Source: Armatimonadota bacterium (GTDB taxonomy: Bacteria > Armatimonadota > Zipacnadia > Zipacnadales > UBA5352). From it: a stretch of 25,537 nucleotides of DNA. Within the stretch, counting starts at the first letter, position 1. Each line of letters starts with the position of its first letter. The stretch is from the NCBI GenBank assembly GCA_034722055.1, contig JAYENL010000235.1, positions 1 through 25,537 of the forward strand. Direction: 5' to 3'. The notes beneath the pieces were generated by a model that worked only from the letters and a program-made list of their open reading frames with translations, was not told the DNA's origin and made no database searches. Both the position numbers and the translations under genes were made by a program. Below are positions 3,051 through 25,180 of this stretch, piece after piece.

Positions 3051-4313
3051 ATGAGGATTCTGCTGGCCCACAAGTACATGTTCCGCGGGGGCGGGACCTC
3101 CACGTACGTCTTCGGGCTCGCCGACGAGCTCGAGCGGCGCGGGCATGAGTGGGTGCCGTTCACGGTTGCCTATGATCAGACAGCAGTTGACACCTACACC
3201 GAGTACTTCGTGTCGCCGCCGCTGGGCCCCGACCAGAGTCACTACAAGGACATGGAGCTTTCGCCGCTGGCCATGATCAAGCTCCTGGCACGGGCCGCCT
3301 ACTCCTTTGAGACGCGGAGAAAGGCCGGTGCGCTGATCGACGCGGCGCACCCAGATATCGCCTACATACAGAACATCTACAACTACATGTCGCCTAGCGT
3401 CCTCGACGCCTGCGCCAGCCGCGATCTGCCCATCGTCATGCGCGTCCCGGACTACAACATGATGTGTGCGGAGCTGCATTTCCTGCGCCATGGCGAGGTG
3501 TGCACGGAGTGCCTGCGGGGCGGCTACTGGCGGGCGCTGCAGCACCGCTGCCTGAAGGGATCCCTGGCGGCGACCGCCGCTCGGGTGGCCTCCATGTACG
3601 TGCATCGCTGGCTTGGGGTCTATGACACGGTGGACCTGTTCATCACGCCCTCCAGCTTCATGCGCGAGAAGCTCATCGCGGCAGGCTACGATGCGGAGCG
3701 CATCGTGCATCTGCGCAGCTTCTATCCCCGCCAGGTCGAACAGGACGCGACCCGCGTGGAGGACGACTACATACTCTACTTCGGCCGGGTCGCGCCAGAG
3801 AAGGCCGTGGACACTCTGATCAGGGCGCTGGCAAGGCTCGAGGACCCGCCGAGGCTGGTCATCGCCGGCAGCGATGTCGATGGAACACGGAGTGAGCTCG
3901 AGGACCTGTGCGCCGAACTGGGCCTCCGCAGCGTGGAGTTCGTGGGCTTCCAGGACCGCGAGGCGCTCGATGACCTGATCCGGCGCTGCCTGTTCACGGT
4001 CGTGCCGTCGCGCTGGTACGACAACTGCCCGATGGCGGTGCTGGAGAGCTTCGCGCACGCGAAGCCGGTAGTGGCCAGCGACATCGGCGGCATCCCGGAG
4101 CAGGTGGCCGGCGACTGCGGCATCCTCTTCGAGCCTGACAACGTGGAGGAGCTTGCGGCGAGCATCACGCGGCTGTTGGAGGACGCCGAGCTGCGTCACA
4201 AGATGGGCGCTGCGGCTCTCCACCGGCTCCGAGAGCAGTACTCAGCCGGCGCGCACTGCGACCGGCTGCTGGAGCTGTTCGAGAGACTCGTCACGGAAAG
4301 ATGCGTGGCATGA
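3051..4313 (+). CDS. Glycosyltransferase family 4 (GT-B) with Cys-rich insert
   Basis: MRILLAHKY..GG N-terminus, YFGRVAPEK, PSRWYDNCPMAVLESFAHAKPVVASDIGGIPE. Confidence 0.9.
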   Translation: MRILLAHKYMFRGGGTSTYVFGLADELERRGHEWVPFTVAYDQTAVDTYTEYFVSPPLGPDQSHYKDMELSPLAMIKLLARAAYSFETRRKAGALIDAAHPDIAYIQNIYNYMSPSVLDACASRDLPIVMRVPDYNMMCAELHFLRHGEVCTECLRGGYWRALQHRCLKGSLAATAARVASMYVHRWLGVYDTVDLFITPSSFMREKLIAAGYDAERIVHLRSFYPRQVEQDATRVEDDYILYFGRVAPEKAVDTLIRALARLEDPPRLVIAGSDVDGTRSELEDLCAELGLRSVEFVGFQDREALDDLIRRCLFTVVPSRWYDNCPMAVLESFAHAKPVVASDIGGIPEQVAGDCGILFEPDNVEELAASITRLLEDAELRHKMGAAALHRLREQYSAGAHCDRLLELFERLVTERCVA

Positions 4314-5443
4314 CAGAGAGCATCCTGGATGTCGTCATCGGCTGTGACTGCGACCCGGATCGTCCGGGATACGACGGCACACGCTATGACAGCAGGGCGC
4401 CGCTGAGGTGGCACGGCGTCCGCAACGGCATTCCGCGGGCGCGCGAGATTGCTGATGAGTTTGTAGATGACTTCGGAAGCCCGGTGCGCATCACGTGGTG
4501 TGTACGATCGGATGCGCAGATGGCAGACATCTACGGGGATTTCGCCTGGCCCTACGCCGAGTTCGCGGACCTCTGGCAGGAGTTGGAGGCGGAGGGCGAC
4601 GAGATCGCCTGGCACCCGCACCTGTGGAGGTGGGACGAAGAGGACGGATGCTGGTACCAGGAGATCGAGGACGAGGAGTGGATCCGAGACTGCCTGCGTG
4701 GTGGATATGAGGCGCTGTGCGAGAGGATGGGACGGGTGCCGACGACCAGCCGGATGGGCTGGGAGTTCCATAACAACGTGACCATGGACGAGATCAGGAG
4801 GCTGGGGATTACGCTGGACTTCTCGGCAATACCGGGCCGCTTTACGCCCGGGGCCGCGGATCGGTGGGGAAGCAGCTTCAACGGCCACGTGGACTGGCAC
4901 GGCACGCCCCAGGAGCCGTACGTCCCCTCCGCATTGGACTACAGGCGGCCTGCCGACGGTGAGACAGGCTCGGATCTGGTCGAGCTGCCGATGTCCGTCT
5001 TCCGGTCGCGGGCCCTGGCCCTGGCCGCATTCACGCGCGGACTGGTCAAGGCTCGCGGCCACGGCAGAATCAGTCGACTTCAGAGCTGGCGGACAGCACT
5101 TGCGGCGCCACTCAAGGCCTACATCAGCGCCCACCCCCAGCTTTTCAGGCGCCTGGTTCGGGCGAAGCTCCGGTACGTACGGGCGGGCAGGTGGGCCGTC
5201 CTCGTGACTGCATTTCATCCCGATGAGGTACTGGGGGATAGCACACTTGGGCATTCGAGCGGAGCCAACCGACACTTCACGCGGAACATCGAGCAGCTTC
5301 AATCGCTCGCCGCCGAGGCAGGCGTAGCCCTGCGCTTCGCCAGTGCGAGCGGATTCGCCCGTGACAGGCACAGCGTCTGCGACCACCTTGCTGACGGTGG
5401 ACCGCAGAACCGCAGCACGGAGTCAGCCGTCACCGCCGGCTAG
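4310..5443 (+). CDS. Divergent polysaccharide deacetylase-like protein (WalW-like)
   Basis: ATGA overlap with the upstream stop. DCDPD, EIAWHPHLW, SRMGW, ELPMS and AFHPDE align by eye with CE4/WalW-type motifs. Confidence 0.6.
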   Translation: MTESILDVVIGCDCDPDRPGYDGTRYDSRAPLRWHGVRNGIPRAREIADEFVDDFGSPVRITWCVRSDAQMADIYGDFAWPYAEFADLWQELEAEGDEIAWHPHLWRWDEEDGCWYQEIEDEEWIRDCLRGGYEALCERMGRVPTTSRMGWEFHNNVTMDEIRRLGITLDFSAIPGRFTPGAADRWGSSFNGHVDWHGTPQEPYVPSALDYRRPADGETGSDLVELPMSVFRSRALALAAFTRGLVKARGHGRISRLQSWRTALAAPLKAYISAHPQLFRRLVRAKLRYVRAGRWAVLVTAFHPDEVLGDSTLGHSSGANRHFTRNIEQLQSLAAEAGVALRFASASGFARDRHSVCDHLADGGPQNRSTESAVTAG

Positions 5444-5491: not shown

Positions 5492-6568
5492 ATGATGAAG
5501 GCGACTCCGGAGACGATGGCAGTCGCCGTTGAGTCTCGACTACACCGGGAGGAGGTGGAACTCCCCTCAGGCCAGACGATGTCGTACCCTCCGCGCATTC
5601 CGCTGGGTCTGCTTCCGACGCGCATAGCCGAATGTCCCAGTCTGTCGGCCCGGCTCGGCGGCAGGCGCCTCGCGATCAAGCACGATGACGAAACGGGGTG
5701 TGTGACGACCGGCAACAAGGTCCGGAAGCTGGAGTTCTACATCGCTGAGGCGATGCAGAGCGGCGCAGACACACTGGTGACGGCTGGCAGCACGCTCTCG
5801 AACCACTGCCGCACGACGGCATTCGTCGCACGGGAACTGGGGTACGACGTTCACCTGGTGCTCTCGGGACCGGAGAGCCCGCTGGTCAACGGCAACTACC
5901 TGTTGATGCTCCTGGCGGGGGCAGAGATCCGGCTGATCCCGATCGAGCGCCACGACGACAAGGATGATTTCGTCAGGGAGGCAGCGTCCGAGCTGGAGGC
6001 AGCGGGCGCAATCCCCTACGTCATCCCTCCAGGCGGCACCGGAGCTCTGGGAGTGATCGCCTACGTACGCGCTGTCCAGGAGCTGCGGGACCAGCTCGCC
6101 GAGACCGGCACGACAGTGGACGCCATCACGGTCACATTCGGGAGCGGCAGCACCTACTCCGGTCTACTGTTGGGCACGCGTCTTCTGGGATTGGACCTTC
6201 GGGTCCTGGGGATGAGCATCGGCACCGAGGCCGGGCAGTGCAGGGAGATCGTTCGTGACCTGATAGCTCAGGCCTGTAGCGTCTTGGGCGTGGATGTACC
6301 CGTCTCGGTTGATGACATCCTGATTACTGACGCCTACTGTGGCCCGGGATACGGTCAGAACACCGAGAGCGACTTCGAGTTCATAAAGGAGATGGCTCGA
6401 GAGACGGGGCTTGTTCTCGATCCCACCTACACAGGCAAGGCCTTCAGAGGCACACTCGAGGAGATGCAGACCGGACAACTCGCAGACTGCCAGGACGTGC
6501 TCTTCCTGCATACCGGCGGCATCTTCGGGCTTTTCCCGAAGCGGAAGCGGTTCGGTCCCAGTGCGTGA
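5492..6568 (+). CDS. dcyD: PLP-dependent D-cysteine desulfhydrase / ACC deaminase-family enzyme
   Basis: GNKVRKLEF (PLP lysine), SNHCR, GSGST, LDPTYTGKA and FLHTGG. YTGK/HTGG is the desulfhydrase or cysteate-lyase type, not the YEGK/HLGG of ACC deaminase. Confidence 0.85.
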   Translation: MMKATPETMAVAVESRLHREEVELPSGQTMSYPPRIPLGLLPTRIAECPSLSARLGGRRLAIKHDDETGCVTTGNKVRKLEFYIAEAMQSGADTLVTAGSTLSNHCRTTAFVARELGYDVHLVLSGPESPLVNGNYLLMLLAGAEIRLIPIERHDDKDDFVREAASELEAAGAIPYVIPPGGTGALGVIAYVRAVQELRDQLAETGTTVDAITVTFGSGSTYSGLLLGTRLLGLDLRVLGMSIGTEAGQCREIVRDLIAQACSVLGVDVPVSVDDILITDAYCGPGYGQNTESDFEFIKEMARETGLVLDPTYTGKAFRGTLEEMQTGQLADCQDVLFLHTGGIFGLFPKRKRFGPSA

Positions 6569-6587
6569 GATACCGAGGGTGAGAGCC

Positions 6588-7958
6588 ATGGGACACGAAC
6601 GCACGCGCGAACTGACCTACCGCCAGACCCTGGTGGTGGTCACACTGCCCTTCCCGGAGAACGTGCCGACTGGGCTGGGCGTCATCCGGGCGCTTGGGCA
6701 GCAGGGCGTCCCGGTCATAGCCGCAGGGGCACGGGCCAACTGCCTGTCAATGCGCTCGCGCTACGTTTCGGACGTATTCGTGGATGATCGGCTGGCTTAC
6801 GATGGGGAGGCCTTTGCTGCAGCACTTCGGTCGCTGGGGGCTCGTGTGAGCCCGAAGCCGGTGCTCTTCGTCAGCACGGACTTCCAGGCGGCGGCCGTGA
6901 GTAACGCCGCAGATGCCCTGCGCGAGCTCTACATCTATCCTTATGTCGAGCCCGAGCGGCTGACTGTGGCGCTGGACAAGCGTCGAACGTGCGAGGTGGC
7001 GAAGAAGGCGGGCATCAGCGCGCCGGCGACGGTAGTAGCAGGACCTGATAGCGATGTTACGGCCATCATTGAGGAGATCCGGTTCTCGGCCGTGGTCCGG
7101 CCAGCGGCGTGGGTCGAGTTCGAGGGCGGCTCAGTCGCGTTGCACAAGGTGTTCCGGGAGGTCTTCAGCGGAAAGGCGGTTCGGGCCACAGACCATCGCG
7201 AACTGGAGCGGCATCTGCAGACTGCGGCGGACCTGGCTACGCCCATCATCGTCCAGGAAGAGATAGTCGGGCCGTCCTCCCGTATCTTCGGGGCGTCAAG
7301 CTACTCCGACGAGGACTGCGATGTTCGGGCCCTGTTTGTGGGTCGAAAGACGCGGCAGCTCCCGTCGGACTTCGGCAGCGGCACGATGGTTGAGAGCATG
7401 GCCTGTGAAGCGGTCGCCGATCACACGAAGCGGCTGGTGGAGGCGGCAGGATACCACGGTGTCGCCGAGCTTGAGTTCAAGTTCGACGAGCGAGATCAGG
7501 AGTTCAAGATCATCGAAATCAACCCGCGGCCCGGAACATGGATCAGCGTAGCGCCGGCCAGTGGGGTAAATACGCCATACGTCGCGTACGCAGACCTGCA
7601 GGGGCACTCCATACCTCCCGTGGACCAGACCGGCGATGGGATGAAGTGGATCGACGCGTGGCCCGACCTGGAGTACCTCTACAAGTACCGAAGCGGCGAC
7701 CACGCCGGTGAGCGGCTGTCAGTGGGCGAGTATCTCAGGTCAGTTCGCGGCCGGAGGGTATGGGCCTACTGGGATGTCAGGGACCCGGTCCCAAGCCTTG
7801 TGCGGCTTGGAGTGGTGTTCCGCGAGCTTTCTGGCAGGGCGATAAGGAAGCTGGTGCAGCCGACCTCTCGGAAGGGAGCTGGCGGCACGTTCGCCGGGAC
7901 TCGGGCAGGGCGATTGCCTGCTCTGCACAGTGGGGTCGGGGACACTGAGCGGCGATAG
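6588..7958 (+). CDS. ATP-grasp carboxylate-amine ligase (D-aspartate ligase-like)
   Basis: GLGVIRALG, SRY, DK, IVQEEIVG, ELEFKFDERD, IEINPR. Start moved to ATG 6588, just after the upstream stop. Confidence 0.8.
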   Translation: MGHERTRELTYRQTLVVVTLPFPENVPTGLGVIRALGQQGVPVIAAGARANCLSMRSRYVSDVFVDDRLAYDGEAFAAALRSLGARVSPKPVLFVSTDFQAAAVSNAADALRELYIYPYVEPERLTVALDKRRTCEVAKKAGISAPATVVAGPDSDVTAIIEEIRFSAVVRPAAWVEFEGGSVALHKVFREVFSGKAVRATDHRELERHLQTAADLATPIIVQEEIVGPSSRIFGASSYSDEDCDVRALFVGRKTRQLPSDFGSGTMVESMACEAVADHTKRLVEAAGYHGVAELEFKFDERDQEFKIIEINPRPGTWISVAPASGVNTPYVAYADLQGHSIPPVDQTGDGMKWIDAWPDLEYLYKYRSGDHAGERLSVGEYLRSVRGRRVWAYWDVRDPVPSLVRLGVVFRELSGRAIRKLVQPTSRKGAGGTFAGTRAGRLPALHSGVGDTERR

Positions 7959-8023: not shown

Positions 8024-9241
8024 TTGGAGGAGCGCGAGCTGTCAACGAGGCGCAGTGGGGACGAGCGATCAGTCTGCTTCATCCACACAGGCCCGGCCAT
8101 GGTGGCGCTCCTTACCGGGAACGGACCAAAGGCGATGGGTGGCGCCGAGCTACAGCTCGACCTGCTGGGCCGCGAGCTGAGGAGGAGAGGCTGGCAGGTC
8201 TCCTTCCTGGTCGGCGACTACGGACAGGAACGCGTTCAAGAGACGCCAGACGGGATTCGCCTGCTCCGAGCATATGCTAACAGCGCGGGGGGACGCTCCA
8301 TGGCATCGACGGTAGGGGCAATGAGGGAGTTCTGGAAGGCGCTCAAGGACGTCGACGCCAGCATCTACGTGACGCGCGGATTGACGGGACAGGCGGGTAT
8401 CGTGGCGGCGTACAGCCGAGTGCGCCGAAAGAAGTACGTCTTTTGGTTCGGCAAGAACTCGGACGCTCGCTACGGAGTGCCCTGGCTGTCCGGATTGCCG
8501 CTCACCGAGCGGCTGCCGGCGTCCTACGGCATTCGAGCCGCAAGCGCGGTCGTCTGCCAGACCGAGCAGCAACGCGAACTGCTCCGCAAGCATATCGGCC
8601 GGGATGGCGTGCTAATCCGCAATGCGACACCATGGTGTGAGGGGACTTCCATAAGGGAGTCCGGTGGCTACGCCCTATGGGTTGGCTCCGTGCAGCCGAA
8701 GAAGAGGCCTGACATGATGCTGGACCTCGCGGCGGAGATGCCTGACGTGCGGTTCGTGATGGCGGGAGGCAGCATCAAAGGGCACACCGAGCTCTACCAT
8801 ACGACGGAGCAGCGCGCAGCCGAGTTGCCCAATGTGGACTTCCTCGGCTTCGTGCCCTTCGCCGAGATACAGAAGCACTTCCGGTCCGCCGACCTGCTGA
8901 TCAGCACGTCGGATGGGCGAGACGAGGGCTTCCCGAACGTGTTCTTGCAGGCCTGGAGTATTGGAGTGCCGGTCGTCGCAACATGTGATCCCGATGGCGT
9001 TATCTCCAGGCACAACCTGGGCTTCCACTGTAAGTCGATTGCAGAGATGCGTGGCGCTATCGGCCGGCTAAGGGAAGACCGCCTGCTTCGGCACGAGATC
9101 GGGAAGCGGGCTCGCGAGTACGTGAGGGAGAACCACTCTCTCGAGCGGGTTGGCAACCGGCTCGAGACGCTGCTCAAGGGGCTGCTGGGCGATGGTTCAC
9201 CACACAGAGACGACGAGCAAGACAGAAGAGCTCATGCCTGA
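8024..9241 (+). CDS. Glycosyltransferase family 4
   Basis: GGAELQL, WVGSVQPKKRP, EGFPNVFLQAWSIGVPVV. Start codon uncertain. Confidence 0.9.
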   Translation: MEERELSTRRSGDERSVCFIHTGPAMVALLTGNGPKAMGGAELQLDLLGRELRRRGWQVSFLVGDYGQERVQETPDGIRLLRAYANSAGGRSMASTVGAMREFWKALKDVDASIYVTRGLTGQAGIVAAYSRVRRKKYVFWFGKNSDARYGVPWLSGLPLTERLPASYGIRAASAVVCQTEQQRELLRKHIGRDGVLIRNATPWCEGTSIRESGGYALWVGSVQPKKRPDMMLDLAAEMPDVRFVMAGGSIKGHTELYHTTEQRAAELPNVDFLGFVPFAEIQKHFRSADLLISTSDGRDEGFPNVFLQAWSIGVPVVATCDPDGVISRHNLGFHCKSIAEMRGAIGRLREDRLLRHEIGKRAREYVRENHSLERVGNRLETLLKGLLGDGSPHRDDEQDRRAHA

Positions 9242-9265
9242 TCCAGAAGTTCGAGGTCTGGGGCA

Positions 9266-10396
9266 ATGGTCTCGCGTAACCAGAAACCGAGGCTCTGCAT
9301 AGTTAACACTGGCCTGGCGGTGCCGGAAATGCTCCTGGCTAAGGGCCCTCAACGAGCCGGCGGAGCCGAGTTGCAGTTGGCGCAGATCGCTCGGCAGCTC
9401 AGCCAGCGCGGCTGGCCCGTGACCTTTGCGTTCAAGGGGGCGCCGGGAAGCGACAGGGGTATGCACACACCAGACATCGAACTGCTGAGTTTCAACGGCT
9501 CAGGCGCGGGCGTCCCGGGACTTCGCTTCCTCACGCACACACTTCCGAGCAATTGGCGTCTCATCAACAGAGCCAACGCTGACGTGTACTTGCAGCGCGG
9601 TACCGGCTGGCAGAATGGACTCCTGAGCTGGCTGTGTCGGCGGCGTGGTCGGGCGTTCGTGCTGTGGCTGGCATCGATCACTGATCCCTATTGCGATGAC
9701 CCCAGGCGCTCCCGCCTACCTATCCACGAGCGGTGGTTGGCGCGATATGGTCTGAGGCGCGCCGATGCCATTGTGGCTCAGACGCGCGAGCAACAGGTGG
9801 TGCTCCGCGAGCGCCATGGCCGCGACTCGGTGGTCATTCGGAACATGTGGGCGCTGCCGGCGGGACCTGCCCAACCGCCAGAAGAACCGCGAGAGGTGTT
9901 CTGGGCCGCGACGATGCGGGAGCGGAAGAGACCGCACCTTTTCCTGGATGTGGCTGAGGCTCTACCCGACCTCCGCTTCACGATGGCCGGGGGACCGGCC
10001 TCAGACAATCCGGAGTTGTACGAGGAGACACGAGCGAGAGCCGAGCAAATCCACAACGTCGAGGTCCTGGGCTTCGTGCCATTCCGGGAGATAGACCAGT
10101 ACTTCGCTCGGGCCGCCGCCTATCTGTGCACCTCGACGATCGAGGGCTTCCCGAACACATTCCTGCAAGCGTGGAGCCACGGGAGACCGGTCGTGTCCAC
10201 CCTCGATCCGGATGGCATCATAGCTGAGCATAATCTGGGCTTCCACCGCACGGGTCTGGATGGCCTCATCTCGGCTGTTCGCCTGGCGTGCGAGACCAGC
10301 GAAGACTACATCGAGCGCACGCGAGAGTACGTTCGCGCCTATCATTCGCCCGACGTGATCGTACCGCAGATCGAGGAGCTTCTCTGGAGCCTTTAG
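9266..10396 (+). CDS. Glycosyltransferase family 4, paralog of the preceding gene
   Basis: GGAELQL, WAATMRERKRP, EGFPNTFLQAWSHGRPVV. Confidence 0.9.
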   Translation: MVSRNQKPRLCIVNTGLAVPEMLLAKGPQRAGGAELQLAQIARQLSQRGWPVTFAFKGAPGSDRGMHTPDIELLSFNGSGAGVPGLRFLTHTLPSNWRLINRANADVYLQRGTGWQNGLLSWLCRRRGRAFVLWLASITDPYCDDPRRSRLPIHERWLARYGLRRADAIVAQTREQQVVLRERHGRDSVVIRNMWALPAGPAQPPEEPREVFWAATMRERKRPHLFLDVAEALPDLRFTMAGGPASDNPELYEETRARAEQIHNVEVLGFVPFREIDQYFARAAAYLCTSTIEGFPNTFLQAWSHGRPVVSTLDPDGIIAEHNLGFHRTGLDGLISAVRLACETSEDYIERTREYVRAYHSPDVIVPQIEELLWSL

Positions 10397-10468
10397 CTTA
10401 GCCGGGAGGGCTCCTCGGCGACGCCGCAAGCAGTACCTCTGGTAGCCTGCAGGTAGGAGGTGTTCCTG

Positions 10469-13159
10469 GTGCCGCAGGACACGATTGTCTCGATCATCCT
10501 GGCCGGGGGGCGCGGTACACGTATGCGGTCAGATGCGACGCACAAGGTCTGCTTCGAGGTAGCCGGCGTCCCGGTCATTCTTCGGGCGCTTCAGACATAT
10601 GAGGAGTGCGGCATAGACCACCACATCATCGTGATCGGTGAGCTCGGCGAACAGGTCGTGGAGACCGTCGGCGGGCGGTTCCCCAACGTCAGCTTCGCCT
10701 ACCAGCCCGAGCCGCTGGGCACCGGCAACGCTGCGAAGTGTGGAGCCCGCTCCCTGGAAGCTACCGGCTACGATGGGCGGGTGCTGGTCGTGGCCGGTGA
10801 CCGACTTCTCAGTCACGGAGCTGTCACCAGCCTCATCGACCACGCCCTACAGACCCACAGTGACTGCGCCTTCCTGGTGGGGCATAAGGCGGACAGTCCT
10901 ACGTCCGGTCGGGTGGTGTACGACGGCGGACAGCAGGTCGCCGGCATTGTGGAGACGAGTGAGATCGCGCTGTCGAATGTCGTGAGCGCTCTCAGTGAAG
11001 AGGTGAGAGGCGACGGCGAGCGCCTGGCCTGTGGCCCCCTCCTCGAGAAGATACATGCCCACTTCCCGAGCCGGGACAAGGCTGCCACCGCGTGCGGCGA
11101 GCTCTACGTGACACTGGCTGGCCAGGAGCAAGTCCAGGGCGCTGAGGTGAAGCGGCTCCTGCAACCTCTTGCTGACGTGAGCACACTGCAACTGCCGATG
11201 GGCAGCGGAATGACCACCTTGCCGGCCGGTGACGTCGAGGAGATGACGGAGGACGTCAACCTCTCTTCGTATCTGTTCCGGGCGCCGGCGCTCTACGAGA
11301 GCCTGCGATCTCTCAGCAGGGACAACGCACAGGGGGAGGAGTTCCTGACCGATTGCGTGCGAGCTCTCGCCGGAGAGCGTGATGAGACCGGGGAGCGCCG
11401 GTACACGGTGACGACCGTCAAGATCGATGACCCGGATGAGGCGATGGCGTACAACACCCCTGAGGAGCTGGCGGCCATCGAGCGACGGATGAGGGCCGAA
11501 CAGGGAGGTACGGTCAAGCTCGTTGAGAGGCCCAGATTCCTTCACGAGCGCAGCCTCCGGCCCCTCGCCGAGTGGCACCTGCTGTTCTCAACCAATCCAC
11601 CGGAGGTCCAGCAGTTCATGCGGGAGACCTATGGCCCCTACGCTGCAGTCCACGAGGAGAAGCGCCGACAGTACCAGGACGCCATCTCCTGCTACATGCA
11701 GCACTATAGCGCCCAGGACGAGGTCTTTCTGGTCCGCTCACCGGGCCGAATCAACCTGCTGGGCCGGCATGTGGACCACCGCGGGGGAACCGTCAACGTC
11801 GTGGCCATCGACGACGAGATCATCCTGGTCGCTTCGCCGCGAGACGATGACGTGATCGAGCTGCGCAACAGCGACCGCTCCTTCAGTCCGGCCTCGTTCT
11901 CCATCCAGGAGCAGATCGCCAGGCTGGACTGGGGGGACTGGATGACCTGCGTGAACAGCCCCAAGACCCTCGCCATGGTCAGCAACGGTCATTGGGAGAA
12001 CTACGTGATGGCGGCAGCCCTGCGACTGCAGGAGCGGTTCCGGGACACCGGCCTGCGAGGCCTCAATCTCCTGACGCACGGTACGATTCCGATGGGCTCG
12101 GGGCTGAGCTCGTCATCCGCCATGGTGATCGCCGCCGCTGAGGCACTGGTCACCCGGAACAGGCTGCCTGTCCGAGCCAACCTGCTGGTCGATCTGTGCG
12201 GCGAAGGAGAGTGGTTCGTTGGCACCAGGGGCGGGAACAGCGACCACGCGGCCATCAAGTTCGGGCGACGAGGCCAGGTGGCCCATATCGGCTTCTTCCC
12301 GTTCGCGGTGCATGAGTTCCTTCCGTTCTTCTCCGACCACTGCCTGGTGGTCTGCAACTCAGGCGTCGAGGCCAAGAAGAGCGAGGGCGCGCGCATGACC
12401 TTCAACGGGAAGATCCTGGGATATGTGGCGGGTGAGCTGATCTTCAAGCAGCTCTTCCCCGCCTTCGCCGGGTCGATCCATCACCTGCGGGACATCTCCT
12501 GTCGGAACCTGGGGATCCAACTTCCCGAGTTGTATGAGATGCTCAGACGTCTGCCCATGAAGCTCACGCGCACCGAGCTGTTCGAGCGCTACGGCCCCTT
12601 CGATCCATCGGGACGTGAGAAGCTGCGCAACCTGCTGTCGGGCCTCCCTGAAGATGACACGCCCTTCGATGTCAGAGGCGTCATGCTCTATGGACTGGCG
12701 GAGTGCGAGCGTAGCCTGCGCTGCGTGGAGCATCTGAGACGCGGTGATGCGAGTGGCTTTGGTGAGCTGTGGCATGTCTCGCACGATGGCGACCGGGTCG
12801 TTGAGTACGACGAGCAACTGCGGCCCCAGCCATGGGACTACGAGGTCGATGACGAGTATCTCGACGGACTGATAGCGGACATCGAGAGTGGTGACCCGCC
12901 CAGGGTTCGGCGCGCGCAACTGCACCGCCAGCCCGGCAAGTACGGGTGCAGCACTCCCGAGACGGATCTCATCGTGGACCTCGCGCGGCGTGTGCCCGGC
13001 GTGAAGGGAGCCCAGCTCGCCGGGGCCGGCCTGGGCGGGTGTGTCATGATTCTCGTAGAAGAGGCATCGCTTGATGAACTGCTCAACGCGCTCGAGCAGC
13101 GGAGCCTGCAAGCCAAGCGTTACCACCTGCCGGAGGGCGCTGGTCTGGTAGTGGTATAG
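10469..13159 (+). CDS. Bifunctional GlmU-like nucleotidyltransferase / galactokinase-family (GHMP) sugar kinase fusion
   Basis: N-terminal part: ILAGGRGTRM, QPEPLGTGNA, VAGD, DNAQGEEFLTD. C-terminal part: PGRINLLGRHVDH, PMGSGLSSSSA, GAQLAGAGLGGC. GTG 10469 follows the SD AGGAGGT. Confidence 0.85.
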   Translation: MPQDTIVSIILAGGRGTRMRSDATHKVCFEVAGVPVILRALQTYEECGIDHHIIVIGELGEQVVETVGGRFPNVSFAYQPEPLGTGNAAKCGARSLEATGYDGRVLVVAGDRLLSHGAVTSLIDHALQTHSDCAFLVGHKADSPTSGRVVYDGGQQVAGIVETSEIALSNVVSALSEEVRGDGERLACGPLLEKIHAHFPSRDKAATACGELYVTLAGQEQVQGAEVKRLLQPLADVSTLQLPMGSGMTTLPAGDVEEMTEDVNLSSYLFRAPALYESLRSLSRDNAQGEEFLTDCVRALAGERDETGERRYTVTTVKIDDPDEAMAYNTPEELAAIERRMRAEQGGTVKLVERPRFLHERSLRPLAEWHLLFSTNPPEVQQFMRETYGPYAAVHEEKRRQYQDAISCYMQHYSAQDEVFLVRSPGRINLLGRHVDHRGGTVNVVAIDDEIILVASPRDDDVIELRNSDRSFSPASFSIQEQIARLDWGDWMTCVNSPKTLAMVSNGHWENYVMAAALRLQERFRDTGLRGLNLLTHGTIPMGSGLSSSSAMVIAAAEALVTRNRLPVRANLLVDLCGEGEWFVGTRGGNSDHAAIKFGRRGQVAHIGFFPFAVHEFLPFFSDHCLVVCNSGVEAKKSEGARMTFNGKILGYVAGELIFKQLFPAFAGSIHHLRDISCRNLGIQLPELYEMLRRLPMKLTRTELFERYGPFDPSGREKLRNLLSGLPEDDTPFDVRGVMLYGLAECERSLRCVEHLRRGDASGFGELWHVSHDGDRVVEYDEQLRPQPWDYEVDDEYLDGLIADIESGDPPRVRRAQLHRQPGKYGCSTPETDLIVDLARRVPGVKGAQLAGAGLGGCVMILVEEASLDELLNALEQRSLQAKRYHLPEGAGLVVV

Positions 13160-13210: not shown

Positions 13211-14146
13211 ATGGCGACTTACCTGGTGACGGGCGGAGCCGGGTTCATCGGCAGCAACATCGCGGCTGAGCTGACGAGAAGGGGGCACGAAGTACGCGTC
13301 CTCGACAACCTGGCGACCGGCAGACGGGAGAACCTGTGCGAGATCGAGGACAGCGTGGACTTCTACGAGGAGGACATCCGCGATCTCGAGGCCATCAGGC
13401 CGGCGTTCGAGGGCGCGGATGTTGTGCTGCACCAGGCTGCCCTGCCCTCCGTTCCCAGGTCTGTAAAGGACCCGGTAGCGACGACGGAGGCAAACGTCAA
13501 TGGCACAATCAACGTCCTCCTGGCCGCTCGCGACGCGGGGGTCAGACGGGTGGTGGCAGCATCGTCCTCATCGGTCTACGGCAGCAATCCGGAGCTGCCT
13601 AAGAGGGAGAGCATGCGCCCGGCGCCGATCTCGCCCTACGCTGCATCAAAGCTGGCAGGTGAGGGGTACGCTGCGGCCTTCAATGAAGTCTACGATCTGG
13701 AGACCGTCTGCCTCCGCTACTTCAACGTCTTCGGTCCGCACCAGGACCCGTCATCTCAATACGCGGCGGTCATTCCGATCTTCGTGTCGAGGATGCTGGA
13801 GGGGAAGCCACCCATCGTCTTCGGCGACGGGGAGCAGTCGCGAGACTTCTCCTACGTGGCAAACGTAATCGAGGCCAACATGTGCGCGGCCGAGGCCGAT
13901 GGAGGCGCCGGCCAGGTGTTTAACATCGCCTGTGGGGAGAACGCGACGCTCAACGAGCTGATCTCCCATCTCAATGACATTCTGGGGACGGACCTCACAC
14001 CCGAGTACACTGACGAGCGCCCCGGAGACGTGAAGCACTCCCTGGCCGACATCTCAGCAGCCCGCGAAGTGCTTGGCTACGAGCCACAAGTCCACTTCCG
14101 CGACGGCCTGGCGCTGGCAGTCGAGTGGTATGCAGAGAACCTGTAG
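13211..14146 (+). CDS. NAD-dependent UDP-hexose/HexNAc 4-epimerase (extended SDR, WbpP/TviC-like)
   Basis: TGGAGFIG, HQAALPSVPRS, SSSSVYG, YAASK, LRYFNVFGPHQDP..YAAVIP. Confidence 0.9.
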   Translation: MATYLVTGGAGFIGSNIAAELTRRGHEVRVLDNLATGRRENLCEIEDSVDFYEEDIRDLEAIRPAFEGADVVLHQAALPSVPRSVKDPVATTEANVNGTINVLLAARDAGVRRVVAASSSSVYGSNPELPKRESMRPAPISPYAASKLAGEGYAAAFNEVYDLETVCLRYFNVFGPHQDPSSQYAAVIPIFVSRMLEGKPPIVFGDGEQSRDFSYVANVIEANMCAAEADGGAGQVFNIACGENATLNELISHLNDILGTDLTPEYTDERPGDVKHSLADISAAREVLGYEPQVHFRDGLALAVEWYAENL

Positions 14147-15741: not shown

Positions 15742-17685
15742 ATGTTCGGGATAGTCGCATCGACGCGGAAGGCGGCGGAAGGCACGGTCGGTGCGGTTCG
15801 GCGGGCGGGTGCGTCTGCGGGGGGCGCCCACTTCGCGGACGGACCTCGCTCGTCGTTCCGAGTGCTTCTGCCCGACGGAACGCCCGGCAGCTTCTCGTGG
15901 AACGAGAAGCGCACGGCATGTTGTGCGGTGGTCGGAGAGGTGCTGGATCCCAGCGCAGGGAGCCAGGAGGATGCTTCTGACGGCGGTGGGCGAGCTGATG
16001 GTGCAGCCAGGCGCCTGCTGCACCAGTGGGAGCAGCGTGGCGCCAGGCTCATCCAGAACGTCAGCGGGCTCTTCGCGGCGGCGGTGTGGGAGGTCGAGGC
16101 CGAACGCCTGACACTGCTGTGTGACTGGATCGGTGGGATACACCACCTTCACTACGCGATGACAGATGATGGACTTGCCTTCGCCTCAGACATCTACCCT
16201 CTTCTGCAAATCGAGGCATGGGACGGTGCGTTGAGCCAGGCCGGGCTGGCGCAGTATCTGGACTTCGGACACATCCTCCCCCCCAACACCGTGTTCCAGG
16301 GAATCCACAAGCTGGCTCCGGGCTGCGCGTTAACCTACGAGAACGGCGAGGTCACTGTGCAGCGCGTGTTCCGGCTGGACTTCGCGCCACGATCGGATGG
16401 TGACTGGGTCGAGCAGTTCCGCGACACACACCGGCGAGCGATCGCTCGCTGTCTCTCGGGCCCGGACGAGGTGGGGGCCTTCCTGAGCGGGGGCATCGAC
16501 TCCAGCTTCAACGTCGCCGCGATGAGCGAGCTCAGTGAGAAGCCCATCAAGACCTTCGCGGTGACCTATCCCGGCGAGGACATTGATGAGGCTCCCTACG
16601 CGCGGCTTGTCGCCGAGGCGTTCGGCACGGACCACCACGAGCTCGCACTGGAGTCCTCGGCCGTACTCGATGAGCTGCCCGAGATGATCTGGGCGCTCGG
16701 GGAGCCGGCCATGGACTACTCCTTTATCCCCACCTTCAACCTCGCTCGGTTCGCGCGGCAGCATGTGCAAGTCGCCGTCTCGGGTGACGGCCCGGATCAT
16801 CTTCTGGGTCGGCACCATCCGGTGGCGCTCGTCAGGCGGACTCTCGGAAGGCTTCCCTGGAGCGGTCGGCTCGCATCGGTTCTGCTGGCGAGCGACCGGT
16901 CCGTAAGGTGGAAGATCGCCGGCTGGCGACGTCTGCGAAAGAGCGAGAGCGGCCGCTTTCTTTGGAAGGCCCTGCAGTCACTGGATGGGGATGCAGTCGA
17001 GGCGTACCTCTCGATCTACCGGGAGATCGCCTACCGGGGTCTGCTGCCAGACGGCCCCCGTGCGATGATGGACAGCACGGCTGCGGGTGTGCTCGACGGG
17101 GCTGGCGTGGACGCCATCGTGACGGATACCCTTGACGGGCAGCCAAGTGAGTTCGAGCGGATGATCGGTCTGGACCTGGCCATCGACGGCTCCTTCGGAG
17201 TGTTCGCCAAGGTCGGCAAGATGGCTGGGTATCACGACCTGCAGATACGGGAGCCCTACCTGGACGCGGAGATGTGTAGCCTGCTGGAGCACGTCCCATC
17301 CGGCCTGAAGGTGCGGGGCTCTGCGATGGACCTGGTCCGGAACCGCGCGCGAACGAAGTACCTGCTCTATGAGGCGGCCAGGGGCGTGGTGCCCGACGAG
17401 GTGATCCGGAAGCCGAAGCAGGGCTTCCAGGCGCCGATTGGCCGGTGGCTTTGTGACTGGCTGGCGGACCGGGACGCTCACGCTCTGCTCCCCGCTCTCG
17501 CACGCAGCACGCAGTGGCTCAACGCAGGCGCGGTCGATAGGATCCTGCGTGAGCACCGTGAGGGGAGGCGCGACCACAGTACCCTCATCATGATGCTGAT
17601 CACACTGGACCTGTGGCACGGCATCTTCGTCGAAGGGAATGCTGACAAGCCCGGCTGGACCTGGAGCGAATGGCTGAAGCAGTAG
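15742..17685 (+). CDS. Asparagine synthetase B-like amide synthetase, N-terminal catalytic Cys absent
   Basis: FASDI, LSGGIDSS, SGDGPD, REPYLD, KPKQGFQAP. The protein begins MFGIV rather than MCGI. Confidence 0.85.
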   Translation: MFGIVASTRKAAEGTVGAVRRAGASAGGAHFADGPRSSFRVLLPDGTPGSFSWNEKRTACCAVVGEVLDPSAGSQEDASDGGGRADGAARRLLHQWEQRGARLIQNVSGLFAAAVWEVEAERLTLLCDWIGGIHHLHYAMTDDGLAFASDIYPLLQIEAWDGALSQAGLAQYLDFGHILPPNTVFQGIHKLAPGCALTYENGEVTVQRVFRLDFAPRSDGDWVEQFRDTHRRAIARCLSGPDEVGAFLSGGIDSSFNVAAMSELSEKPIKTFAVTYPGEDIDEAPYARLVAEAFGTDHHELALESSAVLDELPEMIWALGEPAMDYSFIPTFNLARFARQHVQVAVSGDGPDHLLGRHHPVALVRRTLGRLPWSGRLASVLLASDRSVRWKIAGWRRLRKSESGRFLWKALQSLDGDAVEAYLSIYREIAYRGLLPDGPRAMMDSTAAGVLDGAGVDAIVTDTLDGQPSEFERMIGLDLAIDGSFGVFAKVGKMAGYHDLQIREPYLDAEMCSLLEHVPSGLKVRGSAMDLVRNRARTKYLLYEAARGVVPDEVIRKPKQGFQAPIGRWLCDWLADRDAHALLPALARSTQWLNAGAVDRILREHREGRRDHSTLIMMLITLDLWHGIFVEGNADKPGWTWSEWLKQ

Positions 17686-20819: not shown

Positions 20820-21962
20820 TCAGCTCTCGGCAGCAGCGGCCGTCGCGGAGTCCGGAGGCTCAGACTCGGACAGCGCCTGTTGCTGTCGAGCTGCATGTCC
20901 CACCAGCGAGTCGCATGTATTAATCTTCTCGCGTGCCCACCGGATAGCCTTCCTGCGCAGATGGTCGAGTCCGTATCTCGGGATGTAGTAGAAGCGCTTG
21001 TACGCCGTACCCAGCATATCGTTGCCGATGCAGTGTCCCTGCTTGGGGTAGAGAAGGAACTGGCGATCGGCCTCCAGGCCGAACAGCAGCAGCTCCGTGA
21101 CGGTGTCCTCGATCTGTGCAACCGGGTGCACGAAGCTTATCCCGTGCGAGCCGTACCACTGCTCCCGCACCGCGAGCATCTCCGGGTCGCCCTGGCTGAG
21201 CTGGTAGCTGACCCTCAGATCCGAGCCGTCGGCGACGACCTTCACGCCGTGCTCGGCCGCGTATCTGAGGGTGCCGATGTCGAAGGACATCTTGCAGGCA
21301 AGGCACGGCCAGCCGATTGGAGCCGTCCCGAACCTGCGCAGGTCGGCCAGGTAGTCGCCGAAGAGCAGGGCCTTCAGGCCTTCGGTGGCGTCGATCTGCC
21401 GGTGAACGATGAGGTCATGGCCGAAGAGATCAGCCAGCTTCTGTGCGTTCACCCGGCTCTGACCTGAGTCCCGGATGAAGGGATGATGGAACGTAAGCAG
21501 ATGTACCCGCTCGAAGGCCAGTGCACTGAGGACCGCAGCCACCGTGGAGTCCGCCCCACCCGAGTACTGCACGATCAACTCGGGACCGTGCGAGAGGGAG
21601 TCGCCGAAGGCCGTCCTCGCATACTCGGTCGTCAGCAGCGACCTGCGGGCGGGATCGACGCCCAGGCGCTGGAGGAGCTCGCCGGTGAGCACCTGGCCCT
21701 TACGGTCCGCCGCCTGGAGCTGCTCGCATAGCTCCCGCGTCTGCCGGCGGCTTCTGACCCGTCCGGATGCGTGCTGGCGCTTGTGCTCACCCTGACCATC
21801 GTAGAGCGAGGGGAGGAGCCTCAGACCGATCCCGGCAGTGGACCGGAGCAGACGCAGCCAGGCGCAGCGCAGCCCCAGCGTACACATGCCGGTTGTCATG
21901 GCTCCGATCAGCCACGTCCCGGCTCCAGCCACTGCTTTCCCCATTCGTGCGACCACCGACAT
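20820..21962 (-). CDS. Uncharacterised PP-loop ATP pyrophosphatase (adenine nucleotide alpha-hydrolase) with CxxC
   Basis: QYSGGADST PP-loop, WPCLACK, VADG and a distal QGHC. Start uncertain (21962 or 22016). Confidence 0.7.
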   Translation of the reverse strand: MSVVARMGKAVAGAGTWLIGAMTTGMCTLGLRCAWLRLLRSTAGIGLRLLPSLYDGQGEHKRQHASGRVRSRRQTRELCEQLQAADRKGQVLTGELLQRLGVDPARRSLLTTEYARTAFGDSLSHGPELIVQYSGGADSTVAAVLSALAFERVHLLTFHHPFIRDSGQSRVNAQKLADLFGHDLIVHRQIDATEGLKALLFGDYLADLRRFGTAPIGWPCLACKMSFDIGTLRYAAEHGVKVVADGSDLRVSYQLSQGDPEMLAVREQWYGSHGISFVHPVAQIEDTVTELLLFGLEADRQFLLYPKQGHCIGNDMLGTAYKRFYYIPRYGLDHLRRKAIRWAREKINTCDSLVGHAARQQQALSESEPPDSATAAAAES

Positions 21963-22000
21963 TCGCAGTGCCCCTTGTCGTAAAGGCGGCCCCTGAACGG

Positions 22001-23161
22001 CTACCCCGCGACACACGCCGCCCGATGCTCACGTCTGCTGCCGAGCTTGGTGAGCGCACGCTCGTAGACGGCCTCGAAGCCGTCGGTCGTCTTCTCCCAG
22101 TCATACTCCCGGGCCACGTAGCGTCGTGCGACATCGAACTGATCGGCGACCACGTAGGGACAGGCCAGGAGCTCGGCGAGCGTACGGCGCAGATCGTCCG
22201 CGTCGCGGGACCTGAAGGTGCGGCCGCATTCCCCCTCGCCCAGGGCCTCAAGGTTCCCCGGGATGTCACTGGCGAGCACGCACCTGCCGTAACTCAGGGC
22301 CTCCAGAACGGCCATCGAGAGCCCCTCGAGAGTCGATGGCTGCACGTAGAGATATGCGTTGGAGAACAGCTCGGCGAGCACGCTCCCATGCTGATAGCCG
22401 GCGAAGATGACGTTGGGGCCAGCCTGCTGGTGCAGCCGGTCCACGTAGGGATCCCTGAAGTTGGTGCCGCCCACGATCACAAGCTTCTTGTCAGTGTCAA
22501 TAGCCTCATAGGCCGAGATGAGATACTCCAGTCCCTTCTCCGGAGTGAGCCGGCCAACGAAGAGCAGGTACTCCCCGGGCTCGAGCCCCCACTGCTCGCG
22601 GATCTGTCTCGCCGGAAGCAGCTCCGGTATTTCGACGCCGCTGGGAATGTAGGTGGTGTCGCGGCCAAAGGTGCGCCGATAGAACTGGCGCAACTGCTTC
22701 GACACCACCGTGACCTCGTGGGCGAAGGCGATGGGAACCCGGGCGGCCATGCGCATCGCCGCCGTGGCCAGAGGTCCCCACTTCGCGCCTGTCCAGTCCA
22801 GGCTGTGAATCGTCGCCACCACAGGACGACCGCGTCGAAGCCGCAGCAGCGGTGCGACCACCGCCGGGGCGGAGCCATGGATGTGCACCACGTCGAAGTC
22901 CCGGCCGAGGGCGTCTATCGCAGAGGAGACCGTGTGCGTGAGGGCGTCGAGGTACTTGCCGCGCAGACCCGCAGACAGCTTCCGCTCAACGCCCTTGTGG
23001 GGCGAGATGGGCGGAGTCTCGTCATCCGGCAAGTACTGGCGCCGGCAGTAGACGACCACCTCATGCCCGCGGGCCACCAGGCGCGAGCCGATCTGCTCCG
23101 TGTACGTGCAGATGCCTCCGGGACACGGGATGGCCTTGACCCCAAGCATGGCGATCTTCAT
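22001..23161 (-). CDS. Glycosyltransferase family 4
   Basis: MKIAMLGVKAIP..GG, FVGRLTPEKG, EGLSMAVLEALSYG, SDIPGNLE. ATG 23161 lies 7 nt after GGAG. Confidence 0.9.
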   Translation of the reverse strand: MKIAMLGVKAIPCPGGICTYTEQIGSRLVARGHEVVVYCRRQYLPDDETPPISPHKGVERKLSAGLRGKYLDALTHTVSSAIDALGRDFDVVHIHGSAPAVVAPLLRLRRGRPVVATIHSLDWTGAKWGPLATAAMRMAARVPIAFAHEVTVVSKQLRQFYRRTFGRDTTYIPSGVEIPELLPARQIREQWGLEPGEYLLFVGRLTPEKGLEYLISAYEAIDTDKKLVIVGGTNFRDPYVDRLHQQAGPNVIFAGYQHGSVLAELFSNAYLYVQPSTLEGLSMAVLEALSYGRCVLASDIPGNLEALGEGECGRTFRSRDADDLRRTLAELLACPYVVADQFDVARRYVAREYDWEKTTDGFEAVYERALTKLGSRREHRAACVAG

Positions 23162-23199: not shown

Positions 23200-24252
23200 T
23201 CACTCGCTCGGAACCTGGTCTCCCGCCACCACGGGCGAGGCATCATCCGCAGGCTGCCCGTCACAGTCAGATCCAACCGACAGGAAAGCCCCTTCGAGCT
23301 CCTGGTCAAAAGGGGCTTCCGGCTCTTCCTCAGCGATCCCCTCTTCTGGCTCGGGAGCGCTCATCTGCCTCTGAGTGTCGTACAGCCAGCCGATGAACAG
23401 CACGAATGAGAGCACCGCAGCGAAGTAGACGACGAGGTCCGAGAAGCCGTGCACGACCACTCCCAGTGCGAAGTCAGCACCGAGGTACTCCGCGAGCAGA
23501 AGCACGAAGACCAGACGGACGACGTTCGCGAACAGCACCAGGGGAACGATTATCGCGATGGCTGCGACCCTGCGAAAAGGGCCGAGGCCTGACAGCTCGA
23601 CAAGCACGAACCCGGTGAGGAGCAGGGCCACCAGCGAGTGCATTCCGCTGCACTCCTGTGCGACCACGAAGTCGAACCCGTGGAGATCAAGGGTGATGCC
23701 CTGCTGCACGACGGACAGGCCGAGGAGGGGCGCGGCCTTGGCAGCGATGACCGCCGAGACCTGCTGCATGGGCATCGCGGCCATCCCGATGGCGTGCTCG
23801 GGAAAGGGGACCGCGAATATCAGGACCGCAATGGGTGCGGCTACGATGCGCAGCGTGCGCATTCCGTACATCGCGCCCACGATACCGGCCAGTATGACGG
23901 GCAGCGCCAGCCCTGCCACTATGCGCACGCCGGTGCGAGCGAACACCCAGTACAGCACAAGCCCCATGACCAGCAGGGCAAGAGCGGATCCGGAGGCTGA
24001 CGGCTGCTCCTCCGTCAGGCGTTCCCAGCGCCGCCACAGCAGCCAGCCTGCGATCGCCGGCACCGCAACGCAGTGGTAGTAGGCGGGCGTCTCGAACCAC
24101 CGCGCCAGCCATACCTGCCCGACCTGCCAGTACATGGCGACCAGCACAATGAGAGCTGCCGCCCCCCACAGCAGCTCGCGCCGGGGCTTCCTCTGCGTGC
24201 CGAGCGCAGTGCCCGCTCGCGCAACCGATTGGCCTATCTCTGTCTTCCGCAT
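23200..24252 (-). CDS. Exosortase (EpsH/Xrt family), no EpsI domain
   Basis: Multi-TM protein with Cys-Arg-His triad motifs VAQECSGMHSL, ANVVR and VHGF; also YYH and FAVPFP. Start set at ATG 24252. Confidence 0.92.
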   Translation of the reverse strand: MRKTEIGQSVARAGTALGTQRKPRRELLWGAAALIVLVAMYWQVGQVWLARWFETPAYYHCVAVPAIAGWLLWRRWERLTEEQPSASGSALALLVMGLVLYWVFARTGVRIVAGLALPVILAGIVGAMYGMRTLRIVAAPIAVLIFAVPFPEHAIGMAAMPMQQVSAVIAAKAAPLLGLSVVQQGITLDLHGFDFVVAQECSGMHSLVALLLTGFVLVELSGLGPFRRVAAIAIIVPLVLFANVVRLVFVLLLAEYLGADFALGVVVHGFSDLVVYFAAVLSFVLFIGWLYDTQRQMSAPEPEEGIAEEEPEAPFDQELEGAFLSVGSDCDGQPADDASPVVAGDQVPSE

Positions 24253-24282
24253 GAGATCAGGGCTTGGCCCTCCGTCGGTTTT

Positions 24283-24316
24283 GGGGCGCCGGCGCCCTCG
24301 CGGTCGCCGGCGCCCC
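24283..24316 (-). terminator. GC-rich hairpin after the second PEP-CTERM-type gene (no U-tract)
   Basis: Perfect 12-bp stem GGGGCGCCGGCG/CGCCGGCGCCCC, 16 nt after the stop codon. Confidence 0.55.
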
Positions 24317-24332
24317 GGGCAGCCGTGATGTG

Positions 24333-24947: not shown

Positions 24948-25124
24948 CCGTACTACCCCCTCTCTGTGAGGGTCCCCGTTGTAGCCATGTTCGGGGACGT
25001 GTCGTCTCCGGCCACACAGGCCTTGAGCGCACGTCCCTGATGTGCGACCGCGTGGTCTTCATTGGGGAGGCCAGCAGCGTCGGCCGCGTGACCTCCCCAG
25101 GTGCATCCCGATCAAGGTCCAGGT

Positions 25125-25158
25125 GGGGTGCCGCACGACCTCAGCCGGGCGACACCCC
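25125..25158 (-). terminator. GC-rich hairpin after the first PEP-CTERM gene
   Basis: Minus strand GGGGTGTCGC...GCGGCACCCC, a 10-bp stem with one G-U pair plus an inner stem, 22 nt after the stop. Confidence 0.5.
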
Positions 25159-25180
25159 GGAACAGCGTTACGTCCAGCGG

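Follow-up and report, generated by a model that had tools for sequence, protein, structure and literature searches.

A GlmU-type transferase fused to a GALK2-like kinase in an Armatimonadota bacterium: a possible salvage enzyme for N-acetylated uronic acids

The stretch of DNA analysed here (the window; 25,537 nucleotides (nt), contig JAYENL010000235.1 of the Armatimonadota assembly GCA_034722055.1) carries a surface-polysaccharide cluster with a flippase, family 4 glycosyltransferases (GT4), a deacetylase, an exosortase and a GalU-like gene. Our subject is one gene of this cluster, at 10469..13159 on the + strand, in which a nucleotidyltransferase domain is joined to a sugar kinase domain. 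It is a single open frame of 896 amino acids (aa) plus stop with both domains in one chain, as an earlier note on this DNA had stated, and both Pfam and the structural model confirm this. The source genome (G000) is a draft, 92.7% complete. The GTG at 10469 is a likelier start than the in-frame GTG at 10460 because of the Shine-Dalgarno-like sequence before it (Table 1). A frameshift or assembly artefact is ruled out by the single open frame together with the near-full-length relatives, 40-75% identical, which make up almost all of the 120 best matches. The promoter and terminator scan of the window gave chance-level signals only.

In Pfam searches (positions in 899-aa numbering) the N-terminus matched NTP_transferase/NTP_transf_3 at residues 11-165, and the C-terminus matched GalKase_gal_bdg (412-460), GHMP_N (514-602) and GHMP_C (805-880) above cut-off. 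The best NCBIfam matches of the whole protein were galactokinase and GlmU models, all far under cut-off. The AlphaFold model, based on 121 sequences, had a mean predicted local distance difference test score (pLDDT) of 92.9 and a predicted template modelling score of 0.68, its two lobes being joined by a loose linker; the N-domain modelled alone and without alignment reached a pLDDT of only 47.9 and was not usable. Compared with known folds, the model gave Z scores of 34-36 for galactokinases and human GALK2, 29-31 for GlmU and 23 for MurU. The ESM Atlas comparison returned GalK-family clusters only. An N-terminal nucleotidyltransferase and a C-terminal GHMP kinase in one chain is the layout of enzymes that work in two such steps, and the protein very probably belongs to the reaction class of kinase plus uridine diphosphate (UDP)-sugar pyrophosphorylase, as had been proposed.

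The N-terminal domain is of GlmU type, not of GalU/RmlA type, by both sequence and fold matches. It shares with the GlmU uridylyltransferase domain its fold and its signature residues: when aligned to the GlmUs in PDB, it keeps the equivalents of R18, K25, Q76, D105, G140, E154, N169, Y197, T199 and N227 (we take this numbering to be that of GlmU). It differs from GlmU in having no left-handed beta-helix acetyltransferase (Pfam detected no hexapeptide domain), in HKVC for PKVL and in an insertion of about 90 aa at residues ~166-255, and it reached only 106 bits against the GlmU cut-off of 366.85 (TIGR01173). Among 120 relatives (the best matches, query included) the transferase residues are near-invariant: Lys26 in 115 (five gaps), Gln79 in 116 (four gaps), Asp111 in 117 (three gaps), Glu162 in 119, Asn264 in 117 and Asn329 in all 120. 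The kept E154 and N169 and the aromatic Y197 equivalents suit a sugar that has an N-acetyl group and an unsubstituted O3. One further difference from GlmU is specific for the family. Directly after the GlmU-type Asp lies Arg112, and Lys or Arg occupies this place in 117/117 aligned close relatives and in 72/85 aligned representatives, but in 0/27 true GlmUs (those parsed from 30 loci), all of which have Thr, Ala, Ile, Val, Leu or Asn there. We take this position, from RmlA, to face the sugar O6. The source genome also has a full GlmU, as do nine or more further carriers; the additional transferase therefore hints at a sugar-1-phosphate that GlmU does not accept.

The C-terminal domain is a GHMP sugar-1-kinase, with its N and C domains, the PxGxGLSSSA loop, the catalytic Arg and Asp, and the fold match given above. 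Human GALK2 (PDB 2A2C), a GalNAc (N-acetylgalactosamine) kinase, and the galactokinases are its best matches in sequence and fold, and human GalNAc kinase is its best PDB sequence match. The catalytic Arg427 and Asp592, the ATP loop PxGxGLSSS (541-551) and Asp436 are kept, also in the 120 relatives (Arg427 in 119, Asp592 and Asp436 in 118 each, plus the ATP loop), and the TxGG loop has its Gly as in GALK2. The counterpart of Asp436 in human GALK1 is Asp46, a ligand of the galactose C3-OH and C4-OH (PMC7790741). The residues of the two domains suggest that both are active. The sugar pocket differs from that of GALK2: GEHIDYCG has become GRHVDHRG and TEGGGMDQ has become TRGGNSDH, with further insertions and with the transferase attached. 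The altered positions are Arg433, His437, Arg438, Arg587 and His593. The motifs GRHVDHRGG and GGNSDH, on which the earlier note relied, are indeed present and align with GEHIDYCGY and GGMDQ of human GALK2; the exact string RGGNSDH occurs in 1/120 (the source copy only), the family consensus being RGG[SA][GA]DH. In accordance with GRHVDH in place of GEHxDY, the galactokinase model TIGR00131 gave 127.5 bits against its cut-off of 226.65.

The Glu of galactokinases, which we presume to bind the sugar C6-OH at O6, corresponds to position 433. Here the 120 best relatives have Arg (112) or Ser (8). Among 150 representatives at 50% identity we found Arg in 121, Met in 10, Val in 8, Lys in 3, Thr in 3, Ser in 1, Asn in 1 and a gap in 3. 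Glu occurs in none of the 147 aligned representatives. A private mutation is thereby ruled out, and the loss first noticed in one protein is real and runs through the whole family. As Arg is usual, other non-acidic residues occur and Glu never does, the constraint can be described as exclusion of Glu with a preference for Arg. Likewise general is the change of TEGG to TRGG, in which another Glu is replaced (Arg in 118/120 and 130/150). Provided that the presumed O6 placement holds, the two domains would both be adapted to a carboxylate at C6.

The same phylum has a sister group in which 8/8 aligned sequences keep GEH[IT]DYNG and T[EQM]GGGMDQ, like human GALK2, so that a conventional type of GalNAc kinase already exists there. 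Three of these Glu-keeping loci have their own separate adjacent nucleotidyltransferase gene. In a quick tree (64 rows, four rows having been dropped at domain cutting; midpoint root, no bootstrap) the sister group stood separate from the Arg family (Shimodaira-Hasegawa-like approximate likelihood ratio test, 97). Kinases near-identical to the human GALK2 motifs (L210-L217) are candidate true bacterial GalNAc kinases.

Which sugar could be taken by such a protein? An acidic one of some kind is probable from the pocket residues. Our preferred and still tentative reading, to which we give a probability of about 0.42, is bifunctional salvage of a free N-acetylhexosaminuronate (HexNAcA), that is N-acetylgalactosaminuronate (GalNAcA) or N-acetylglucosaminuronate (GlcNAcA), via its 1-phosphate to UDP-HexNAcA. 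The free sugar would presumably be imported from the environment. The C-terminal domain would phosphorylate its C1 with ATP, Asp592 probably acting as the base with assistance from Arg427, by analogy with Asp762 and Arg592 of FKP (PMC11982464). From the 1-phosphate and UTP the N-terminal domain would form UDP-HexNAcA, the epimerase encoded by the next gene would interconvert its galacto and gluco forms, and the GT4 glycosyltransferases of the cluster would use both. Between the two acids GalNAcA is slightly favoured, given the likeness of the kinase to GALK2 and its conserved Asp for O3/O4. The acidic substrate proposed in the earlier note has gained independent support from the basic residue added in the transferase and from a missing dehydrogenase (see below), and its case is now stronger than the motif by itself would make it. 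Such a sugar would more probably be an N-acetylated uronate than galacturonic acid (GalA).

Table 1. Features of the fusion gene and its neighbours (window positions)
Feature	Coordinates	Strand	Basis and remarks
Two GT4 glycosyltransferases	8024..10396	+	Pfam; directly upstream of the fusion; same cluster recurs in 7 loci
Shine-Dalgarno-like AGGAGG(T)	10454..10460	+	Sequence; 8 nt upstream of GTG 10469
GlmU-type sugar-1-phosphate uridylyltransferase domain (aa 1-345)	10469..11503	+	Pfam, NCBIfam, alignment, model
Low-confidence inter-domain linker (about aa 346-354)	11504..11530	+	pLDDT < 50 at 347-354
GALK2-like GHMP sugar-1-kinase domain (aa ~355-896)	11531..13159	+	Pfam, alignments, model
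WbpP/WbgU/TviC-type UDP-HexNAc(A) 4-epimerase	13211..14146	+	51 nt downstream of the fusion
AsnB-like amidotransferase	15742..17685	+	Begins MFGI, without N-terminal Cys; not a conserved partner

The gene neighbourhood provides further evidence. The downstream epimerase has its best PDB matches in 10KE, WbpP (1SB8, E 1.7e-80) and WbgU, and the best NCBIfam model was TviC, under cut-off. Among 67 genomes of the source order, 18 have the close fusion clade (at least 46% identity; the count omits five kinases of greater distance, fragments at contig ends and paralogs of other types), 17 have the close epimerase (at least 62%) and 15 have both, mostly adjacent. The 4-epimerase is a conserved partner of the fusion within the order, and the predicted link to this neighbour has held up well (15/17 genomes with the close epimerase also hold the fusion). 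The upstream GT4 enzymes could possibly use the product of the fusion. The argument from an adjacent amidating enzyme turned out to be weak: the AsnB-like gene, whose product may work with ammonia or a different amine, is without a counterpart among the 42 other clustered loci and is not supported as a conserved partner.

In other genomes of the order a Gfo/Idh/MocA gene follows the fusion (G167, G308, G309, G328), or a WlbB-like gene lies directly after it together with a DegT gene (G113), the WlbB/WbpD-like acetyltransferase matching 3MQG (E 4e-60). UXS-like genes, whose product has human UXS1 as its best PDB match (E 6e-47) and is a probable decarboxylase, flank a family gene in G149, G297, G303, G313 and G318. 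Among the metagenome neighbourhoods (80 loci kept of 354), L197 has a WbpA-like dehydrogenase gene immediately after the fusion and L204 a TviB-like one immediately before it, and in L149 the fusion is preceded by a TviC-like epimerase gene and a WlbA-like gene (3Q2K, E 1e-56). N-acetylhexosamine (HexNAc) genes are found beside the fusion elsewhere (see below). Uronate-pathway and HexNAc neighbours both say N-acetylhexosamine, and only the uronate set says acid.

UDP-GlcNAcA and UDP-GalNAcA are donors for the Vi antigen, many O-antigens and teichuronic acids, and are made by oxidation of UDP-HexNAc, dependent on nicotinamide adenine dinucleotide. In the source genome no UDP-sugar 6-dehydrogenase was detected by PF00984, PF03721, TIGR03026 or tblastn, with controls matched in 11/14 genomes. 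Such genes were found in 265 of 301 genomes of the phylum, but only in 5 of the 28 genomes of the source order among them; the census of 67 gave 13, two of them weak partial matches. With no dehydrogenase found here and in most of the order, the fusion may be the only route to UDP-HexNAcA. A one-for-one exchange of the dehydrogenase for the fusion is not supported, as the two genes show no anticorrelation within the order and coexist elsewhere: no dehydrogenase was found in 15/18 close carriers and likewise in 41/49 other order genomes. UXS-like genes of at least 45% identity occur in 9/67 genomes, all nine of which hold a dehydrogenase or a member of the fusion family, and five of them adjoin a family gene; four weaker matches (37-39%), one of them in G013, lie outside this count. 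A WlbB-like gene occurs in 4/67 genomes, three with the fusion family and without a dehydrogenase found, and one with a dehydrogenase. These co-occurrences are suggestive only, because the genomes are drafts and kin.

Glucuronokinase-like genes (a family name that we take from a presumed motif) occur in 34/67 genomes of the order, with two in the source genome (C232:1499-2533 and C193:10345-11370), which suggests that free-uronate kinases are indeed in use in the order. Of the close carriers, 13/18 have one, in G122 within the same cluster as the fusion. In the source genome glucuronate seems to be served by these separate genes. MIOX, a source of free glucuronate, had no match in the source genome, and its control matched in no genome either. 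It is conceivable, if rather doubtful, that the order has largely given up UDP-sugar 6-dehydrogenases and makes the acidic sugars of its surface glycans out of free uronates, by way of the fusion (HexNAcA) and plant-type glucuronokinases (glucuronic acid, GlcA).

Several observations weigh against salvage of HexNAcA. Arg433 is dispensable, with Ser, Met and Val variants, and the Ser variants precede the same epimerase. Loss of the Glu by itself is not diagnostic, since an ordinary galactokinase-like protein of the source genome has Gly there, and the C6 roles that we give to the pocket residues are presumed ones. The transferase Lys could bind phosphate instead. No anticorrelation between fusion and dehydrogenase was observed in the order (dehydrogenase in 3/18 carriers and 8/49 others, p = 1.0), and distant carriers hold both. 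The genomes compared are kin and do not count as independent cases, and linkage is enough to make neighbouring genes occur together. The close epimerase is present in G027 (93% complete) and the weaker UXS-like match (38%) in G013, and in neither genome was a fusion, dehydrogenase or glucuronokinase found. Neutral-HexNAc neighbours exist, namely GlmS (L176), GH123 (L144, L174) and NagA-like genes (L159, L168, L058). A neighbouring dehydrogenase suits a neutral product equally well, and outside the order most fusion loci have unrelated housekeeping neighbours. To our knowledge, there is no known source of free HexNAcA.

The main rival reading is salvage of a neutral sugar, in which GalNAc or GlcNAc (N-acetylglucosamine) would pass through the 1-phosphate to UDP-HexNAc, the epimerase would link it to the UDP-GlcNAc pool, and the Arg and Lys residues would be lineage marks or phosphate ligands. 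This is a serious but on balance unlikely alternative. In its favour, the closest PDB sequence is human GalNAc kinase, the GlmU-like domain keeps an N-acetyl pocket, WbpP-type epimerases act on neutral UDP-HexNAc, and G027 has such an epimerase with no uronate source found; the GlmS, GH123 and NagA-like neighbours agree with it, and the adjacent dehydrogenases of L197 and L204 could oxidise a neutral product. Against it stand the complete absence of Glu from the 147 representatives, when a Glu-keeping GALK2-like group exists in the same phylum, and the added basic residue that all 27 parsed GlmUs lack. Many carriers already have a full GlmU, and it would stay unexplained why UXS- and WlbB-like genes adjoin the fusion in genomes without a dehydrogenase found.

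A non-acetylated uronate, GalA or GlcA, converted to UDP-GalA or UDP-GlcA would make the protein a bacterial counterpart of plant galacturonokinase (GalAK) plus USP, which we consider improbable; GalA was the sugar named first in the earlier note. The same charge arguments hold for it. Plant GalAK is a GalK-family enzyme with an acidic substrate, lacks the Glu and has an HxDHQGG-like motif, and the likeness in HxDH[QR]GG is one that we presume; it stands alone, has about 420 aa and carries Ala where the fusion has Arg. UXS-like neighbours normally take UDP-GlcA, and in G297, G313, G316 and G318, all of which have a UXS-like gene, no clear dehydrogenase and no glucuronokinase-like gene was found. 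Zebrafish GKUP (see below) is an example of a comparable organization for GlcA. Against it stand the GlmU-type transferase, the WbpP/WbgU-type epimerase and the glucuronokinase-like genes already present in 13/18 close carriers. The fusion kinase is almost unrelated to these last and does not belong to the glucuronokinase type, with 27% identity over 77 aa to a glucuronokinase-like protein of a related genome. According to PMC2823444, plant galacturonic acid kinase and glucuronokinase themselves share almost no sequence, so acidic-sugar kinases appear to have arisen more than once in the GHMP fold.

Another anionic sugar, such as N-acetylmuramic acid in AmgK/MurU-like recycling or a 6-sulfo or 6-phospho HexNAc, would suit the basic pockets, the scattered distribution with housekeeping neighbours and a weak MurU similarity in NCBIfam, but is very improbable: Asp436 is kept, whose human equivalent Asp46 binds the C3-OH and C4-OH (PMC7790741), the GlmU E154 equivalent is kept in 119/120 and leaves little room for an O3-lactyl group, MurU lies far under GlmU (Z 23 against 31), family members exist in archaea, and there is no recurrent peptidoglycan-recycling neighbour. 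That one domain is inactive or merely regulatory has hardly any probability, for the signature residues of both domains are near-invariant and split forms keep both genes adjacent (G149, G313, G318), even if many family members are kinase-only and the zebrafish GKUP pyrophosphorylase activity was extremely low in vitro (PMC3938481).

Two characterised fusions have a comparable organization. FKP of Bacteroides fragilis, an L-fucokinase/GDP-fucose pyrophosphorylase named as a precedent in the earlier note, arranges its domains in the same order, works by the same two-step logic and feeds surface polysaccharides, but uses L-fucose and GTP (PMC11982464), has a beta-helix in its N-domain where the fusion has none, and its kinase gave a weaker structural match to our model (Z 23.5). 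The fusion had no fucokinase Pfam match, no FKP among its sequence matches and no beta-helix in its model, and is not an FKP. The precedent holds for the layout and is not the sole one. Zebrafish DrGKUP, a glucuronokinase and putative UDP-glucuronate pyrophosphorylase (PMC3938481), has an N-terminal nucleotidyltransferase and a C-terminal GHMP sugar-1-kinase as well, would turn an acidic sugar, GlcA, into its UDP-sugar and is also known in split form; it differs in its length of 619 aa and its glucuronokinase-type kinase, where the protein described here joins a GlmU-type transferase to a GALK2-type kinase. The fusion belongs to neither of these two families and lies outside GlmU and galactokinase proper.

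The relatives carry automatic source names such as galactokinase, N-acetylgalactosamine kinase and NTP transferase. Their named hosts include Armatimonadota, Chloroflexota, Brocadiia and Hydrogenedentes, the closest named relatives being Armatimonadota, and divergent members are named as Promethearchaeota and Thermoproteota archaea. Within the phylum 116/301 genomes match at E <= 1e-20, a count that takes in more distant GHMP classes; a scan of genome contigs for the family came to only two loci. The census of architectures confirmed the GlmU-type/GHMP fusion and gave fused, split-adjacent and kinase-only forms, with both genes side by side in G149, G313 and G318. Extra domains in 18 long members gave no hint on the substrate. 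The family is large, occurs in bacteria and archaea and is apparently unstudied. A literature search, with subscription papers and supplements outside its reach, found no study of it and no enzyme described for conversion of free N-acetylhexosaminuronate to UDP-HexNAcA; the available parts of PMC6329318 and PMC8056384 hold nothing on the family, and no paper on PDB entry 9ULX (AbGHMP) was traced in this search.

Further GHMP groups were seen beside the family. The source genome has a stand-alone paralog (G000:C7:7590-9152; L072:7521-9152, - strand), about 32% identical, with the pocket GLHSDGQ and GSRGGPGDT; it adjoins glycoside-hydrolase-like genes and has a close relative in G327. A highly conserved kinase class of ~622 aa (L219-L225, from G060, G018, G034, G153, G230, G004 and G108) has the sugar motif NAFLEYLDMC, THGGANDQ and a long tree branch. 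Another subfamily (L069, L070, L071, L226) has NPH[SAC][DE]HQG at the sugar motif, and L070 is divergent from a WbpA-like dehydrogenase gene. One fusion (L046, G238:C136) lies between the portal/protease and major head genes of a Mu-like prophage. The divergent members P0263, P0268, P0275, P0276, P0264 and P0273, three of them archaeal by name, are either much extended at the N-terminus or end in a CxxCxxCC domain. Two more distant family kinases (G080:C44 and G227:C152) are split over two frames by apparent frameshifts.

Other genes of the window also deserve mention. At 5492-7958 (+) a D-cysteine desulfhydrase/1-aminocyclopropane-1-carboxylate deaminase-like pyridoxal phosphate enzyme and an ATP-grasp ligase are encoded, possibly for amino-acid decoration of a glycan. 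In the region 23200-25537 (-) the exosortase gene is followed by small secreted proteins with PEP-CTERM-like tails (PSPELSP, PTPEPIS). Two genes gave no Pfam or NCBIfam match above cut-off: that at 20820-22016 (-) has an SGGxDS PP-loop-like motif, and that at 4301-5443 (+) recurs in three loci.

If HexNAcA is the substrate, the fusion would provide a second entry to UDP-HexNAcA donors, starting from the free acid, and would explain uronate-using genes in a lineage without detectable dehydrogenases. A dehydrogenase-free route, if true, would mean that the order depends on uronates that it scavenges or oxidises free sugars in some unknown way. The protein would also be a one-protein catalyst for making UDP-HexNAcA nucleotide sugars, and even with a neutral substrate it would be a natural one-protein enzyme from HexNAc to UDP-HexNAc. 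In either case, a tested function would replace the automatic labels 'galactokinase' and 'N-acetylgalactosamine kinase' across a large family.

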